Virus record (IMG/VR): IMGVR_UViG_2850808358_000007
Location: 1-9,200 of that record
Length of the DNA: 9,200 bases
Reading direction: 5' to 3' (one strand)
From: a virus
Lineage: Duplodnaviria > Heunggongvirae > Uroviricota > Caudoviricetes
Shown: positions 1 to 9,200 of the stretch, in pieces
Position numbering within the stretch: position 1 is the stretch's first letter
Layout of the letters: every line of letters starts with the position of its first letter
Translations under genes and position numbers: made by a program
The notes under the pieces: model-generated
Database searches by the model: none
Told to the model about the DNA's origin: nothing
Seen by the model: only the letters and a program-made list of their open reading frames with translations

Positions 1-819
1 TTAAGCAGCCATCTGATGATATTTTTCCCTGAAGGCTGCCGGGGAGATATTCCCCAGACGAGAGTGACGACGCTGACGATTGTAGAAAATCTCAATGTAT
101 TCCCGTATTACTGAGATGGCTTCATCCCGGTTATTAAAACGATAGTGGCTCAGGCTCTCATTTTTCAGCGTTCCCCAGAAGCTTTCCATCGGAGCGTTGT
201 CGTAACAGTTACCTTTACGCGACATTGATGTTTTCAGACCAAACTGCTCCTGTATGACCCGGTAATCGTATGCGCAGTACTGTGAACCTCGATCAGAGTG
301 GTGGATTAGCCCGGCAGGTGGGCGCTGGCTCCTGAGCGCCATAAACAGGGCTTTACCTGTCAGCTCTTTTGTCATGCGCTCTCCCATGGCGTAGCCGACA
401 ATTTCGCACGTATAAACATCTTTGATGCCAGCGAGGTACAACCATCCCTCCTGTGTGGCAACATACGTCAGGTCCGCCACCCAGACCTGATTTGGTGCTG
501 TAGGAGCGAACGTCTGGTTCAGCAGATTTGGCGCAACTGGCAGATTGTGGTTCGGGTTCGTAGTCGCTCTGAACTTGCGTTTCTGCTTACAGCGTAGCCT
601 TAGCTCCTTACGAAGACGTGCCAGTCGGTCACGACCAACGATGATGCCATTCTCTGCCAGCTCCGTCTGGAGCCGCCGGGTTCCATATGTTTCGCGAGTG
701 CGGATATGTGCCACCTTAATCTCCAGTTTTAGCCGCTCATCACTTTGTTTTCTGTCTGAGGGTTCATGCTGTACCCGGTTGTAATAACCGCTCCTGGATA
801 CACCAAATACCTGACACAT
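1..819 (-). CDS. IS3-family transposase OrfB (DDE catalytic domain)
   Basis: 272-aa ORF with integrase-like DDE-region motifs (HSDRGSQY, CYDNAPMESFWGTLK). It is in the -1 frame relative to orfA, and that frame is open with no stop from the slippery site (~906) down to the ATG at 819. Confidence 0.85.
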   Translation of the reverse strand: MCQVFGVSRSGYYNRVQHEPSDRKQSDERLKLEIKVAHIRTRETYGTRRLQTELAENGIIVGRDRLARLRKELRLRCKQKRKFRATTNPNHNLPVAPNLLNQTFAPTAPNQVWVADLTYVATQEGWLYLAGIKDVYTCEIVGYAMGERMTKELTGKALFMALRSQRPPAGLIHHSDRGSQYCAYDYRVIQEQFGLKTSMSRKGNCYDNAPMESFWGTLKNESLSHYRFNNRDEAISVIREYIEIFYNRQRRHSRLGNISPAAFREKYHQMAA

Positions 820-1157
820 CGCTTCAATGGGAAATTGTTGTCGCCATTGTTCGATTAACGCGTATTTTTCAGCGACTCCTGTGCAAAATACGCTGTTGCT
901 TTTTTTAATATATCTCGCTCAAGGCGAGCTTCATTTAACGCCTTACGCAGTTGCAGAATTTCAGATTCCAGTTCAGCCACCGTGCGGGAACCAGGAGTAC
1001 CGAGCCCTTTTCTGGCGGCGGTAACCCATTGTCCTAAAGTGCCTTCAGGAAGGGATAATCGGGAAGCGCCTTCACTGATCGAAAGTTGATTTTCAAGAAC
1101 CGTTCTGACAGCTTCGGCTTTGAACTCTTTAGAGTAACGTTGGGTTTTTCTGCTCAT
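1..1157 (-). CDS. OrfAB transframe transposase (predicted -1 programmed frameshift product)
   Basis: Slippery heptamer A_AAA_AAA (minus strand, 906..900) sits in the orfA zero frame at codons Leu-Lys-Lys. After a -1 slip the frame reads ...KKSNSVFCTGVAEKYALIEQWRQQFPIEAMCQVFG... without a stop into orfB (translated by hand from the sequence). Confidence 0.65.
855..1157 (-). CDS. IS3-family transposase OrfA (DNA-binding N-terminal part)
   Basis: 100-aa ORF beginning MSRKTQRYSKEFKAEAV, with a C-terminal leucine-heptad region (LESEILQLRKALNEARLERDILKKATAYFA) typical of IS3-family OrfA. A GGAG Shine-Dalgarno lies about 8 nt upstream on the minus strand (reverse complement of 1162-1175). Confidence 0.85.
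   Translation of the reverse strand: MSRKTQRYSKEFKAEAVRTVLENQLSISEGASRLSLPEGTLGQWVTAARKGLGTPGSRTVAELESEILQLRKALNEARLERDILKKATAYFAQESLKNTR
900..906 (-). other. -1 programmed ribosomal frameshift slippery site (A AAA AAA G) of the IS transposase
   Basis: A run of 7 T on the plus strand at 900-906, i.e. 7 A on the minus strand, positioned in the orfA frame as X_XXY_YYZ. Confidence 0.6.
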
Positions 1158-1221
1158 TATTAGCTCCTTCTGATGCCATTCTATTTCAGGAAGGAGTGTC
1201 CGTTAAACTCAGGCTACCTCA

Positions 1222-2175
1222 GTCGGCATGGTCTGCACGGCCAGCGATGCGGATGCGGAAACCTTTCCCCTCAATAAACCTGTGCTGATTACCAATGTGC
1301 AGAGCGCAATTGCAAAGGCCGGTAAAAAAGGCACGCTGGCGGCGTCGCTGCAGGCCATCGCCGACCAGTCAAAACCGGTCACCGTTGTTGTGCGCGTGGA
1401 AGACGGCACCGGCGACGACGAGGAAACGAAACTTGCGCAGACCGTTTCCAATATCATCGGCACCACCGACGAAAACGGTCAGTACACCGGACTGAAAGCC
1501 CTGCTGGCGGCGGAGTCAGTAACCGGTGTTAAACCGCGTATTCTCGGCGTGCCGGGACTGGACACCAAAGAGGTGGCTGTTGCACTGGCATCAGTCTGTC
1601 AGAAGCTGCGCGCTTTCGGGTATATCAGCGCATGGGGCTGTAAGACCATTTCCGAGGTGAAAGCCTACCGCCAGAATTTCAGCCAGCGTGAGCTGATGGT
1701 CATCTGGCCGGATTTCCTCGCATGGGATACGGTCACCAGTACCACCGCCACCGCGTATGCCACCGCCCGTGCGCTGGGTCTGCGTGCTAAAATCGACCAG
1801 GAGCAGGGCTGGCATAAAACGTTGTCCAACGTCGGGGTAAATGGTGTTACCGGCATCAGCGCATCTGTATTCTGGGATTTGCAGGAGTCCGGTACCGATG
1901 CTGACCTGCTTAACGAGTCAGGCGTCACTACGCTGATTCGCGACATCGTTGACGGCATCAATGCCAAATTTCGTGAGCTGAAAACAAACGGCTATATCGT
2001 GGATGCGACCTGCTGGTTCAGCGAAGAATCCAACGATGCGGAAACTCTTAAGGCCGGAAAACTGTATATCGACTACGACTATACCCCGGTTCCTCCTCTT
2101 GAAAACCTGACCCTGCGCCAGCGTATTACCGATAAATACCTGGCAAATCTGGTCACCTCGGTTAACAGCAATTAA
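1222..2175 (+). pseudogene. FI: P2-like tail sheath protein FI, 5'-truncated by the IS insertion (first in-frame ATG at 1228)
   Basis: The reading frame is open from the IS junction, and the protein ([27 protein letters not shown]...[12 protein letters not shown]) matches my recollection of P2 gpFI. About 317 codons remain versus the ~396 aa I recall for P2 FI. There is no native N-terminus or ribosome-binding site, and the gene sits immediately upstream of FII as in P2. Confidence 0.8.
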
Positions 2176-2762: not shown

Positions 2763-3038
2763 ATGAACAAAGAAAATGTGATTACCCTGGACAATCCGGT
2801 CAAGCGTGGTGAGCAGGTTATCGAACAGGTCACGCTGATGAAACCCAGTGCGGGGACGCTGCGCGGTGTCAGTCTGGCTGCGGTCGCAAACTCAGAAGTC
2901 GATGCACTGATTAAGGTGCTGCCGCGCATGACGGCACCGATGCTGACCGAGCAGGAAGTCGCCGCGCTGGAACTGCCTGACCTTGTGGCGCTGGCTGGTA
3001 AGGTGGTCGGTTTTTTGTCGCCGAACTCGGTGCAGTAA
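2763..3038 (+). CDS. E: P2-like tail assembly chaperone gpE
   Basis: 91-aa ORF, the length I recall for P2 gpE, with the slippery heptamer T_TTT_TTG near its 3' end. Confidence 0.85.
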   Translation: MNKENVITLDNPVKRGEQVIEQVTLMKPSAGTLRGVSLAAVANSEVDALIKVLPRMTAPMLTEQEVAALELPDLVALAGKVVGFLSPNSVQ

Positions 3039-3190
3039 CGTTCCCGAAAAATCTGTCGGTCGATGACCTGATGGCGGATGTGGCAGTGATATTTCACTGG
3101 CCGCCATCAGAACTGTATCCCATGAGCCTGACCGAACTCATCACATGGCGCGAAAAGGCGCTCCGGCGAAGCGGAAACACAAATGAGTAA
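2763..3190 (+). CDS. E': gpE+E' transframe tail chaperone (predicted -1 frameshift at 3011-3017)
   Basis: T_TTT_TTG at 3011-3017 is in the E zero frame (codons Gly-Phe-Leu). By hand translation the -1 frame is then open to a TAA at 3188-3190, giving ~142 aa, the length I recall for P2 E+E'. Confidence 0.65.
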
Positions 3191-5609
3191 CAATGTAAAA
3201 TTACAGGTATTGCTCAGGGCTGTTGACCAGGCATCCCGCCCGTTTAAATCCATCCGCACAGCGAGTAAGTCGCTGTCGGGGATATCCGGGAAACACAAAA
3301 ATCACTGCGCGAGCTGAACGGTCACGCATCCCGTATTGAGGGATTCCGCAAGACCAGTGCACAGCTCGCCGTGACTGGTCATGCACTTGAAAAGGCACGG
3401 CAGGAGGCCGAAGCCCTTGCCACACAGTTTAAAAACACCGAACGTCCGACCCGTGCTCAGGCGAAAGTGCTGGAATCAGCAAAGCGAGCGGCGGAGGACT
3501 TACAGGCGAAATATAACCGCCTGACGGATTCCGTTAAACGCCAGCAGCGGGAACTGGCCGCTGTGGGAATTAATACCCGCAATCTTGCACATGATGAGCA
3601 GGGACTGAAAAACCGTATCAGTGAAACCACCGCACAGCTTAACCGACAACGTGACGCGCTGGCGCGTGTCAGTGCGCAACAGGCAAAACTTAACGCAGTA
3701 AAACAGCGTTATCAGGCAGGCAAGGAACTGGCCGGAAATATGGCCTCAGTGGGCGCTGCCGGTGTGGGGATTGCTGCTGCGGGAACAATGGCCGGAGTTA
3801 AGCTACTGATGCCCGGTTATGAGTTTGCGCAGAAAAACTCAGAATTGCAGGCCGTGCTCGGAGTGGCAAAAGACTCTGCCGAAATGGCTGCACTACGCAA
3901 GCAGGCGCGCCAGCTCGGCGGACGATGCAGCCGGTGCGCAGATTATCATTGCGAAAGCGGGTGGAGATGCTGCGGCTATTCAGGCGGCAACGCCGGTCAC
4001 GCTGAATATGGCACTGGCGAATCAGCGGACGATGGAAGAAAACGCGCAACTGTTGCTGGGGACTAAGGCATCCTTTCAACTGTCAAATGATGATGTCAGC
4101 CATGTGGGCGACGTGTTGTCAGCAACGATGAATAAGTCGGCGGCTGATTTTCAGGGACTCAGTGATGCACTGACTTACCTCGGTCCGGTTGCGAGGACGG
4201 CAGGTGTAAGTCTTGAGCAGGCAGCGGCCATGACAGGTGTGCTGCATGACAATAACATCAGGGGGTCAATGGCGGGTACGGGTAGTAGTGCCGTTGTCAC
4301 CCGATTACAGGCTCCGACAGGGAAAGCATGGGAAGCACTAAAAGAGCTTGGCGTTAAAACCTCGGACAAAAAGGGAAATATGCGTCCGTTGTTCACCATT
4401 CTGAAAGAGATTCAGGTCAGCTTTGATAAACACAAGCTGGGAACGTCTCAGAAGGGGGAATACCTTAAAACCATTTTTGGTGAGGAAGCCCTGAAATCAG
4501 CGAACGTTTTACTGGCAGCGGCTGCAAGCGGAAAACTGGATAAGCTGACCGCCACGCTGAAAGCCTCGGACGGTAAAACGGAAGAGCTGGTTAAAATCAT
4601 GCAGGACAACCTCGGCGGTGACTTTAAGGAGTTTCAGTCCGCTTATGAGGCGGTGGGGACTGACCTGTTTGACCAGCAGGAAGGCGCACTGCGTAATCTC
4701 ACGCAGACGGCCACAAAGTATGTGTTAAAACTCGACGGCTGGATCCAGAAAAACAAATCACTGGCGTCAACCATCGGCATCATTGTCGGTGGTGCACTGG
4801 CGCTGACTGGTGTCATCGGTGCCATTGGCCTCGTAGCCTGGCCGGTTATCACCGGCATCAATGCCATTATCGCGGCAGCAGGCGCAATGGGGGCAATCTT
4901 CACGACGGTTGGCAGTGCTGTTATGACGGCCATCGGGGCGATTAGCTGGCCGGTTGTGGCCGTGGTGGCTGCAATTGTCGCCGGGGCGTTGCTTATCCGT
5001 AAATACTGGGAGCCTGTCAGCGCATTCTTTGGCGGTGTGGTGGAAGGGCTGAAAGCGGCATTTGCGCCGGTGGGGGAACTGTTCGCGCCACTTAAGCCGG
5101 TGTTTGACTGGCTGGGTGAAAAGTTACAGGCCGCGTGGCAGTGGTTTAAAAACCTGATTGCCCCCGTCAAAGCCACCCAGGACACCCTGAACCGTTGCCG
5201 TGATACGGGCGTCATGTTCGGGCAGGCACTGGCTGACGCGCTGATGCTGCCGCTTAATGCGTTCAACAAACTGCGCAGCGGCATTGACTGGGTACTGGAA
5301 AAACTCGGTGTTATCAACAAAGAGTCAGACACACTTGACCAGACCGCCGCCAGAACTCATGCCGCCACGTATGGCAACGGTGGTTATATTCCGGCGACCA
5401 GCTCTTATGCAGGCTATCAGGCTTATCAGCCGGTCACGGTACCGGCTGGTCGCTCTTATGTGGACCAGAGTAAAAACGAATATCACATCAGCCTGACGGG
5501 TGGTACTGCGCCGGGGACACAGCTTGACCGCCAGTTACAGGATGCGCTCGAAAAATACGAGCGGGATAAACGTGCGCGCGCCCGTGCCAGCATGATGCAT
5601 GACGGTTAA
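3183..5609 (+). pseudogene. T: P2-like tail tape measure protein gpT, disrupted by two reading-frame changes
   Basis: Three colinear frame segments: ATG at 3183 (MSNNVKLQVLLRAVDQ...) stops at 3315-3317; a second frame is open from 3269 to 4066; a third runs 3819-5609. All read as continuous tape-measure-like sequence (coiled-coil N-terminus, Gly/Ala/Ile-rich hydrophobic segment, C-terminus ...YERDKRARARASMMHDG). The 2427-nt span is close to the 815 codons I recall for P2 gpT. Confidence 0.7.
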
Positions 5610-5623
5610 GGAGGTGACGAAAA

Positions 5624-6103
5624 GTGATGCTCGCGTTAGGTATGTTTGTTTTTATGCGCCAGACGCTGCCACACCAGACCATGCAGCGTGAATCAGATTA
5701 TCGCTGGCCGTCAAATTCCCGTATCGGTAAACGGGATGCCTACCAGTTTCTCGGTGTGGGTGAGGAAAACATGACGCTTGCCGGCGTGCTTTATCCCGAA
5801 CTGACCGGCGGGAAGCTGACGATGACCACGCTCAGGCTGATGGCAGAGGAAGGCCGGGCGTGGCCGTTGCTGGATGGCACTGGCATGATTTACGGCATGT
5901 ATATCGTCAGCAAGGTGAGTGAAACAGGGAGTATTTTCTTTGCAGACGGCACACCCCGGAAAATTGATTTTACGCTGTCACTCACCCGCGTTGATGAATC
6001 ACTGGCCGCGCTTTATGGCGATATCGGTAAACAGGCGGAATCGCTCATCGGTAAGGCTGGCAGTATGGCGACCAGATTCACGGGTATGACGGGGGCGGGA
6101 TAA
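5624..6103 (+). CDS. U: P2-like tail protein gpU
   Basis: 159-aa ORF, the length I recall for P2 gpU, starting at GTG 5624 followed by ATG 5627. GGAGGT at 5610-5615 is 8 nt upstream. Its stop overlaps the D start (TAATG). Confidence 0.85.
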   Translation: MMLALGMFVFMRQTLPHQTMQRESDYRWPSNSRIGKRDAYQFLGVGEENMTLAGVLYPELTGGKLTMTTLRLMAEEGRAWPLLDGTGMIYGMYIVSKVSETGSIFFADGTPRKIDFTLSLTRVDESLAALYGDIGKQAESLIGKAGSMATRFTGMTGAG

Positions 6104-7266
6104 TGCTGGATGCGCTGACATTTGATGCAGGCAGTACGCTGACGCCGGATTACATGCTGATGCTCGACAGCAGGGATATTACCGGCAATATCAGCGACCG
6201 TCTGATGAGCATGACCCTGACGGATAACCGGGGCTTTGAGGCTGACCAGCTTGATATTGAACTGAACGACGCCGACGGGCAGGTAGGGCTACCGGTTCGT
6301 GGCGCTGTCCTGACGGTGTATATCGGCTGGAAAGGTTTTGCCCTGGTATGCAAAGGGAAATTTACCGTTGATGAGGTTGAACACCGGGGCGCACCGGATG
6401 TGGTCACCATCCGCGCCCGGAGTGCAGATTTTCGCGGGACGCTCAATTCCCGCCGTGAAGGCTCCTGGCATGACACCACGCTCGGTGCGATTGTTGAGGC
6501 GATAGCCTCCCGTAACAGGCTGGAAGCCAGTGTCGCGCCGTCACTGGCAGGAATTAAAATCCCGCACATCGACCAGTCGCAGGAGTCTGATGCGAAATTC
6601 CTGACCCGCCTTGCTGAACGCAACGGCGGTGAGGTGTCGGTAAAAATGGGAAAACTGTTGTTTCTCAAAGCGGGGCAGGGGGTGACGGCCAGCGGTAAAA
6701 AAATCCCGCAGATTACCATCACCCGCAGCGACGGCGACCGTCATCATTTTGCGATTGCTGACCGTGGAGCTTACACCGGCGTAACGGCAAAGTGGTTACA
6801 CACCAAAGACCCGAAGCCGCAAAAGCAGAAGGTAAAACTGAAACGCAAAAAGAAAGAAAAACACCTGCGCGCACTGGAGCACCCGAAAGCGAAACCGGTC
6901 ACGCAGAAGAAAGCGCCAAAAGTACCGGAAGCGCGCGAAGGTGAATACATGGCCGGTGAAGCTGACAACGTTTTTGCCCTGACTACGGTATATGCCACGA
7001 AAGCACAGGCCATGCGCGCCGCTCAGGCGAAGTGGGATAAACTGCAACGGGGCGTTGCGGAGTTCTCCATCAGCCTTGCCACTGGTCGTGCTGATATTTA
7101 CACGGAAACACCGGTCAGAGTGTCAGGCTTTAAGCGCGTCATAGACGAGCAGGACTGGACAATCACTAAGGTGACACATTTTCTGAATAATAGCGGCTTC
7201 ACGACGTCCTTGGAGCTTGAGGTCAGGCTTTCTGATGTGGAGTACGAAACAGAAGATGATGAGTAA
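6103..7266 (+). CDS. D: P2-like tail protein gpD
   Basis: 387-aa ORF, the length I recall for P2 gpD. Start is translationally coupled to the U stop, and position is syntenic with P2. It contains an internal Lys-rich linker. Confidence 0.88.
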   Translation: MLDALTFDAGSTLTPDYMLMLDSRDITGNISDRLMSMTLTDNRGFEADQLDIELNDADGQVGLPVRGAVLTVYIGWKGFALVCKGKFTVDEVEHRGAPDVVTIRARSADFRGTLNSRREGSWHDTTLGAIVEAIASRNRLEASVAPSLAGIKIPHIDQSQESDAKFLTRLAERNGGEVSVKMGKLLFLKAGQGVTASGKKIPQITITRSDGDRHHFAIADRGAYTGVTAKWLHTKDPKPQKQKVKLKRKKKEKHLRALEHPKAKPVTQKKAPKVPEAREGEYMAGEADNVFALTTVYATKAQAMRAAQAKWDKLQRGVAEFSISLATGRADIYTETPVRVSGFKRVIDEQDWTITKVTHFLNNSGFTTSLELEVRLSDVEYETEDDE

Positions 7267-7347: not shown

Positions 7348-7566
7348 ATGTTTCATTGTCCTTTATGCCAGCATGCCGCACATGCGCGTACAAGCCGCTA
7401 TATCACTGACACGACAAAAGAGCGTTATCACCAGTGTCAGAACGTGAATTGCAGCGCCACGTTCATCACTTATGAGTCGGTACAGCGATACATCGTGAAG
7501 CCGGGAGAAGTCCACGCCGTAAGACCGCACCCGTTGCCGTCAGGGCAGCAAATTATGTGGATGTAA
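7348..7566 (+). CDS. ogr: Ogr, zinc-finger late gene transcription activator
   Basis: 72-aa product MFHCPLCQHAAHARTSRYITDTTKERYHQCQNVNCSATF... with Cys at 4, 7, 30 and 35 (a Cys4 zinc finger), matching my recollection of P2 Ogr and E. coli K-12 OgrK. GAGG lies ~8 nt upstream of this ATG. The tracked ORF starts further upstream at 7285, but that extension has no ribosome-binding site support. Confidence 0.9.
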   Translation: MFHCPLCQHAAHARTSRYITDTTKERYHQCQNVNCSATFITYESVQRYIVKPGEVHAVRPHPLPSGQQIMWM

Positions 7567-7667: not shown

Positions 7668-7694
7668 AAAAAATAAGCCCGTGTAAGGGAGATT
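7668..7694 (+). other. Putative P2 attachment-site core (attR) marking the prophage/host boundary
   Basis: AAAAAATAAGCCCGTGTAAGGGAGATT matches my recollection of the 27-bp P2 att core. It lies immediately after ogr and its terminator, where attP sits in the P2 genome, and before host yegQ. Recollection only, unverified. Confidence 0.55.
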
Positions 7695-7838
7695 ACACAG
7701 GCTAAGGAGGTGGTTCCTGGTACAGCTAGCATTTTATGGGTTATGTTTTTCAGCGAAACGGATGATAACCTTAATAAATGCAGCTGTATGTGATCGGTTT
7801 CTAAGAATTTTCCATCCGGGAAAAATAATCGAAATTAA

Positions 7839-9200
7839 TCACTTACCGTGGGGGTTACGCGTGGTTTCCCCGGAGAAATTACGCATTAGCAGCGCGTAAT
7901 TTAGCTCAAGATCCTGCGGGACCGGGAGCCACACAGTATAACCATCGCCTGGTGCGACCGGCATAGCTTCGCCTTTGGCGTTTTCCATGTGCTCAAGGGT
8001 AAAGTTAATGTTGCCTTGCGGCGTCATCAGCTCAAGACTGTCGCCAACGGAGAATTTATTTTTCACCGCTACCGCTGCGAGGTCCCCCTTGCGCTCACCG
8101 GTAAACTCACCAACAAACTGCTGGCGGTCAGAAACTGAATAACCGTATTCGTAGTTCTGATAATCGTCGTGAGTATGACGACGCAGGAAACCTTCGGTAT
8201 AGCCACGATGCGCCAGACCTTCCAGAGTTTCCAGCAGGCTGGTATCGAACGGTTTTCCCGCAGCGGCGTCATCGATAGCTTTGCGGTAAACCTGTGCGGT
8301 GCGTGCGCAATAGTAGAAAGATTTGGTACGACCTTCGATTTTCAGCGAATGCACGCCCATTTTGGTCAGGCGTTCTACATGGGCGATGGCGCGCAGATCT
8401 TTCGAGTTCATGATGTAAGTGCCGTGCTCATCTTCAAACGCGGTCATATACTCGCCAGGACGCTGGGCCTCTTCGATCATAAACACTTTGTCGGTTGGCG
8501 CGCCGATACCCAGCGTCGGCTCAACATTTTGCACCGGAATCGGCTCGTACTTGTGTACGATGTTGCCAACGTCATCTTCTTTCCCTTCCTGGACGTTGTA
8601 CTCCCAGCGGCAGGCGTTGGTGCAGGTACCCTGGTTCGGATCGCGCTTGTTGATATAGCCAGAGAGCAGGCAGCGACCGGAGTAGGCCATGCACAGTGCG
8701 CCGTGAACGAAGATCTCGATCTCCATATCCGGCACCTGATTGCGGATCTCTTCAATCTCTTCAAGCGACAGCTCGCGAGAGAGGATCACGCGGGTCAGGC
8801 CCATTTGCTGCCAGAATTTCACCGTCGCCCAGTTTACGGCGTTAGCCTGCACCGAGAGGTGGATCGGCATTTCAGGGAAGTGCTCACGCACCAGCATAAT
8901 CAGCCCTGGATCGGACATAATCAGCGCATCCGGCCCCATTTCCACCACCGGTTTCAGGTCACAGATAAAGGTTTTCAGCTTGGCGTTGTGCGGTGCAATG
9001 TTGACCACGACATAAAACTTTTTCCCCAGCGCGTGGGCTTCATTGATGCCGAGCTGAAGATTTTCGTGGTTGAATTCGTTGTTGCGCACACGTAGGGAGT
9101 AACGCGGCTGGCCCGCATAAACAGCATCTGCGCCATAAGCGAAAGCGTAACGCATATTTTTCAGCGTTCCCGCCGGGGAAAGGAGTTCCGGTTTAAACAT
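7839..9200 (-). CDS. yegQ: Peptidase U32 family protein YegQ (TrhP, linked to tRNA U34 hydroxylation)
   Basis: 453-aa ORF, MFKPELLSPAGTLKNMRYAFAYGADAVYAGQPRYSLRVRNNEFNHENL..., matching the length and sequence I recall for E. coli YegQ. The start codon is at the last base of the window. A convergent ogrK lies next to yegQ in E. coli K-12. Confidence 0.9.
   Translation of the reverse strand: MFKPELLSPAGTLKNMRYAFAYGADAVYAGQPRYSLRVRNNEFNHENLQLGINEAHALGKKFYVVVNIAPHNAKLKTFICDLKPVVEMGPDALIMSDPGLIMLVREHFPEMPIHLSVQANAVNWATVKFWQQMGLTRVILSRELSLEEIEEIRNQVPDMEIEIFVHGALCMAYSGRCLLSGYINKRDPNQGTCTNACRWEYNVQEGKEDDVGNIVHKYEPIPVQNVEPTLGIGAPTDKVFMIEEAQRPGEYMTAFEDEHGTYIMNSKDLRAIAHVERLTKMGVHSLKIEGRTKSFYYCARTAQVYRKAIDDAAAGKPFDTSLLETLEGLAHRGYTEGFLRRHTHDDYQNYEYGYSVSDRQQFVGEFTGERKGDLAAVAVKNKFSVGDSLELMTPQGNINFTLEHMENAKGEAMPVAPGDGYTVWLPVPQDLELNYALLMRNFSGETTRNPHGK

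Follow-up and report, generated by a model that had tools for sequence, protein, structure and literature searches.

The GGGG run at positions 3278–3281 of the window (the whole 9,200-nt stretch of DNA that was analysed) is very probably an undercall (four G called where there are five) in the long-read consensus of the chromosome CP026877.1, as judged by sequence comparison. The run lies near the start of the tape measure gene T, in what is a decayed P2-like prophage remnant. The base differs from that in intact T genes, the difference is private to this assembly, and like changes are found at other G/C runs of the same chromosome. A technical cause, and an assembly built from PacBio reads only, are what we infer. 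The organism probably carries GGGGG at the run. With five G, T would read from ATG 3183 for 294 codons, and this reading would then be cut by a genuine 20-nt deletion that arose between two copies of CTCGGCG. The four-G break would have no function or mechanism in the cell, and the four-G run is most likely not a real biological feature.

The two gaps in T

The frame that starts at ATG 3183 comprises 44 codons and stops at TGA 3315–3317, as a preceding sequence-only reading of the window had it. Its first 32 codons are the genuine N-terminus of gpT, the last 12 are out of frame. In the −1 frame (relative to ATG 3183) the last stop lies at 3266–3268; from 3269 the frame stays open until the stop at 4064–4066 and reads VAVGDIRETQKSLRELNGHASRIEGF / GDIRETQKSLRELNGHASRIEGF. 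This stretch (3269–4066) corresponds to the T reading from residue ∼ 33 to just beyond the 20-nt deletion. The open adjacent frame and the switch at GGGG 3278–3281, both proposed in the sequence-only reading, are thus borne out by the sequence itself. Alignment of the start of T to P2-type homologues, which that reading had recommended, shows exactly one G missing at the run when the genes of P24C9 (L001) and Wphi are used (GTC-GGGGATATCC versus GTCGGGGGATATCC); intact Peduovirus T genes have GGGGG where the window has GGGG. None of the homologues has the two-frame arrangement; they are single-frame with five G.

Over its full length, the window's T has exactly two gaps relative to T of P24C9 and Wphi (815 aa), the single G and a 20-nt deletion near 3914–3920, so the G-run is indeed the first frame break in the gene. 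We repaired the gaps in silico. Addition of one G alone yields a 294-aa ORF, addition of the 20 nt alone leaves the ORF at 44 aa, and both changes together give an 815-aa ORF with 812/815 residues identical to P24C9 gpT. Loss of the G and the 20-nt deletion are therefore the sole lesions in T. The single-base loss from GGGGG to GGGG, suggested from the letters of the window, is established by the homologue alignment and this repair test. The exact 44-aa ORF has no match in the protein collection, which is uninformative.

The T pseudogene occupies 3183–5609 on the plus strand (2427 nt versus 2448 nt in intact genes). Its C-terminal part (ORF 3819–5609) contains the PF10145 domain (E = 3.2e-42), and positions 3000–5700, which cover E′, T and the start of U, matched 73 near-full-length phage records at up to 97.9% nucleotide identity. 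In the late tail operon the gene follows E/E′ and precedes U, with the synteny of Wphi and P24C9. Homology, synteny and PF10145 all agree with its naming as P2 T.

At ∼ 3914–3920 a single CTCGGCG is left, whereas intact genes have two copies that flank the lost segment (L001 4117–4143). The 20-nt deletion is common to short-read assemblies of the same lineage (see below) and is regarded as genuine because it is shared. This deletion between 7-nt direct repeats is the lesion that kills T. There is no uninterrupted ORF of ∼ 815 codons: the reading is broken at 3278–3281 in this record and at ∼ 3914–3920 in all members of the lineage. We hold with considerable confidence that T is a real pseudogene with one real frame break rather than two, a count that depends on the undercall reading of the G-run.

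CP026877.1 and short-read assemblies of its lineage

The source chromosome is CP026877.1 (assembly GCA_002950035.1, 5.13 Mb). We worked with its positions 1609743–1630690 (denoted L003), in which the window occupies 8774–17973. The host is apparently Shigella boydii ATCC 35964, judging by the adjoining accession CP026876.1, a plasmid of S. boydii ATCC 35964 on which an identical copy of IS600 is found; the sources of the window's exact yegQ protein also name Shigella boydii. Accession block CP0268xx and the neighbour CP026876.1 suggest PacBio as the platform of CP026877.1. Another member of the block, CP026832, is described as PacBio data of Kim et al. (2018). The literature searched yielded no mention of CP026877, GCA_002950035, ATCC 35964 or SRR1811640.

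The window's exact FI fragment occurs on two other contigs, both from Logan assemblies. One is an 8,558-nt contig of ERR200316 (L004, found in 4 runs), the short-read assembly of the S. boydii 16 reference strain NCDC 3610-54; the other, of 3,057 nt, is from SRR1811640 (L005). Aligned to the source chromosome, L004 shows 0 mismatches over 8,558 nt (of which 8,007 nt fall in the window) and one gap, the fifth G. L005 is likewise identical over its 3,057 nt apart from the extra G. On both contigs a 294-aa ORF is called from the position of ATG 3183, and each of the lineage's five short-read runs shows five G. The IS600 boundary, the 156-nt deletion in FI and the 20-nt deletion in T are all present in these assemblies, which therefore belong to the same lineage as CP026877.1. 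The 315-aa FI ORF recurs in them as well. The C-terminal T fragment that results from the 20-nt deletion has just two carriers, CP026877.1 and the ERR200316 contig. Every lesion is shared except the four-G run, which is private to the CP026877.1 record; the pattern is that of a long-read homopolymer error, confined to one assembly while short reads keep the ancestral length.

The sequence-only reading had left two causes side by side, a slipped-strand mutation or a sequencing error. With five G in assemblies of the same lineage, an error in sequencing or assembly is favoured and the biological slip disfavoured. Five G at this run had also been named in advance as the observation that would overturn a biological break, and it is what the short-read assemblies show, in a sequence otherwise identical over 8,558 nt. 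The short-read runs may stem from another isolate than ATCC 35964, a point that counts against the undercall reading and leaves some room for the alternative, a genuine and recent slipped-strand loss (G5 to G4) that hit an already dead gene in the sequenced ATCC 35964 stock alone. A homopolymer is a classic substrate for replication slippage; moreover, T had already been killed by the shared 20-nt deletion and the remnant is non-viable, so further lesions would be neutral. Nevertheless, we consider such a loss unlikely. The assemblies show 0 substitutions over 8,558 nt, which makes a real indel at one particular 5-nt run very improbable a priori; 3 further runs of five G or C are shortened to four in 6.5 kb of CP026877.1; and the four-G allele is a singleton in both E. 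coli lineages checked, one of them represented by a documented unpolished PacBio genome (see below).

The three further sites come from the left flank (L003 1950–8438), which was compared with two E. coli genomes from outside the lineage, ∼ 1.3% divergent. All 3 of the 3 1-nt deletions in this comparison are changes of G5 to G4 or C5 to C4: a G5 to G4 in gatC (L003 3135), a C5 to C4 in an ISEc60-like transposase (L003 3877) and a C5 to C4 in the spacer upstream of gatD (L003 4646). Apart from these, the comparison gave a single 1-nt indel, an inserted base in an AT-rich spacer. Counted over G/C runs of at least 5, 1/13 is shortened in the 8.5 kb covered by short reads and 3/7 in the left flank (4/20 in total). 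Like changes are thus present at other homopolymers of the record, as judged against E. coli references and with one possibly genuine site among them. That site is the C-run of the transposase. Its repair restores 396/396 aa identity to the E. coli copy, and a second copy of the ISEc60-like IS in CP026877.1 has its frameshift at another position (P0075); the same break is also seen in Logan assemblies of other lineages. The shortening may be genuine and cannot be counted as a certain error. For gatC, exact-protein look-up found the broken 310-aa fragment only on CP026877.1; the repaired 354-aa ORF has no exact match in the protein collection, probably owing to a different start call.

Homopolymer indel errors are well known in unpolished long-read assemblies, and the data suggest that CP026877.1 has many homopolymer undercalls. 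The rate is apparently ∼ 4 one-base shortenings of G/C runs of five in the 15 kb examined, which is a point of data quality only. Frameshifts and split genes from CP026877.1, or from similar unpolished long-read assemblies, need short-read support before they are called Shigella pseudogenes. No phage or host biology rests on the four-G run.

The four-G run in other genomes

A 38-nt probe that can seed only across the four-G run was used to search for the allele elsewhere. It was found in 4 of the ∼ 1,554 complete E. coli genomes that have the gene, namely 2013C-4225, 2015C-4136CT1, 2009C-4687 and RM8995-C1 (the four-G records are CP027577.1, CP027550.1, CP031355.1 and CP034799.1), and in 0/75 phage records. 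The five-G form is present at ∼ 1,770 places in E. coli, in 75 phage records and in 2 other Escherichia species, E. ruysiae and E. albertii, the only GTDB representatives that gave a match. No short-read assembly with four G was found. In the four E. coli genomes T measures 2447 nt and is annotated as 'frameshifted', and the other tail genes shown nearby are intact. As a side observation, E. coli MS20653 (NZ_CP082085.1, 2233771–2233808) matches the corresponding 38-nt six-G probe with 1 mismatch, which may represent a +1 allele or a +1 error.

For two of the four genomes, close relatives were compared. Across 20,038 nt, a single G separates RM8995-C1 from its siblings RM8843-C1 and RM8988-C1; between 2009C-4687 and at least 29 other O157:H7 genomes, the sole difference over 5,201 nt is one gap. 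In both lineages the four-G allele is private. A published table gives the genomic islands of RM8995-C1 as 1–7 nt shorter than those of the siblings. According to PMC7054288, 2009C-4687 was sequenced on the PacBio RSII, assembled with HGAP3 and Quiver, and is one of two genomes that did not receive Illumina correction. Accessions of the CP027xxx series are cited to Patel et al. (2018), who sequenced 77 STEC strains by PacBio; the two other CDC strains presumably belong to this set. All four E. coli calls of four G probably have the same artefactual origin.

These occurrences could also be read as biology. In one such reading the G5 run is a real and recurrent slippage hot spot, and the four-G alleles of S. 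boydii and of four unrelated E. coli are independent inactivations of T. We think this very unlikely: where several per cent of the runs in such assemblies are shortened, the same run can be hit repeatedly without any special biology. The stronger form, in which the G-run of P2-family T genes is hypermutable or phase-variable and repeatedly switches T off across lineages, appears more improbable still. It would account for four G in five independent backgrounds (Shigella and four E. coli) and for one six-G allele. However, the run is just five bases long and the five-G form prevails in E. coli, phages and the other two Escherichia species at the counts given above; wherever relatives were compared, a single assembly has four G; short-read counterparts were not found; and the 4/20 runs shortened in CP026877.1 suffice to explain recurrence by error alone. 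A phase-variable contingency locus was accordingly rejected, on the 5-nt length of the tract, the uniform five G of the lineage's short-read runs and the singleton status of four G elsewhere.

Least credible of all, to the point of being negligible, is that T stays translatable, either by a programmed −1 frameshift, for which a true −1 shift 270 nt upstream in E/E′ offers a precedent, or by compensation between the 1-nt and 20-nt deletions, which together remove 21 nt so that the frame past 3920 is again that of ATG 3183: the first is ruled out by the absence of an X XXY YYZ heptamer in the zero frame at 3270–3300, by single-frame intact homologues with five G and by the five G of same-lineage assemblies, the second by six stops in the ATG-3183 frame between the lesions (3315, 3372, 3522, 3606, 3699 and 3807).

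The prophage remnant and its known relatives

The probable undercall lies in a remnant whose order across the window is IS600 / FI′ FII E/E′ T′ U D ogr / CyaR / yegQ. IS600 (IS3 family; 1–1221, minus strand) comprises orfB (1–819, 272 aa) and orfA (855–1157, 100 aa) and shares 99.8–100% identity with plasmid copies. This element bounds the remnant on the left, and directly beyond it in L003 lie yegR and then yegS. The element meets FI at ∼ 1221, where everything upstream of FI codon 28 has been replaced. The tail sheath gene FI (1222–2175, plus strand) has thereby lost 81 nt at its 5′ end and retains the 315-aa ORF; it also has a 156-nt (52-codon) in-frame deletion with its junction at ∼ 1928–1941, between 14-nt direct repeats (CAACGCTGATTCGC in intact phages).

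Downstream, all on the plus strand, follow the intact tail tube gene FII (2188–2706, 172 aa) and the tail assembly chaperone genes E and E+E′ (2763–3190), which overlap the start of T (E′ ends at 3190, the ATG of T is at 3183). The programmed −1 slippery site of E/E′, T TTT TTG, conserved in P2, is intact at 3011–3017. Beyond T, the genes U (5624–6103), D (6103–7266) and ogr (∼ 7348–7566) are intact. The gene for the CyaR/RyeE sRNA (7671–7756, minus strand; Rfam, 100.7 bits) marks the junction of prophage and chromosome, with ogr on one side and yegQ on the other; the host gene yegQ/trhP (7839–9200, minus strand; peptidase U32 family) flanks the remnant. All P2 genes upstream of FI have been lost, and head, lysis, baseplate and fibre genes are missing. 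The remnant is non-viable. The D–ogrK–yegQ junction is present at ≥ 80% coverage in 1,113/5,426 E. coli genomes, and cyaR/yegQ is a common integration site of the P2 family.

Three known systems resemble what is seen here. The first is technical, the homopolymer indel errors of PacBio RSII assemblies made with HGAP/Quiver, which show the same 1-nt loss in G/C runs, private to one assembly, recurrent nearby and giving rise to a 'frameshifted' call. The unpolished PacBio genome 2009C-4687 has the identical call at the identical site; for CP026877.1 itself, platform and polishing history are presumed.

The second is the cryptic P2-family remnant at the E. coli ogrK locus, which has the same D–ogrK–CyaR–yegQ junction, with yegR/yegS on the opposite side. 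K-12 presumably retains just a D fragment and ogrK at this locus. What sets the window's remnant apart is how far it has decayed: only CP026877.1 and the matching Logan contigs have the IS600 truncation, the loss of 156 nt from FI and that of 20 nt from T.

The third is T of phage P2 and other Peduovirus members (gpT, 815 aa), to which the window's gene corresponds in nucleotide identity (96–98%), in the order FI FII E E′ T U D ogr and in PF10145. It differs from intact Peduovirus T by the 20-nt deletion and the missing G, and the remnant around it lacks the genes upstream of FI. The gene is an ordinary Peduovirus T homologue, and neither the decayed prophage around it nor its widely used integration site is unusual.
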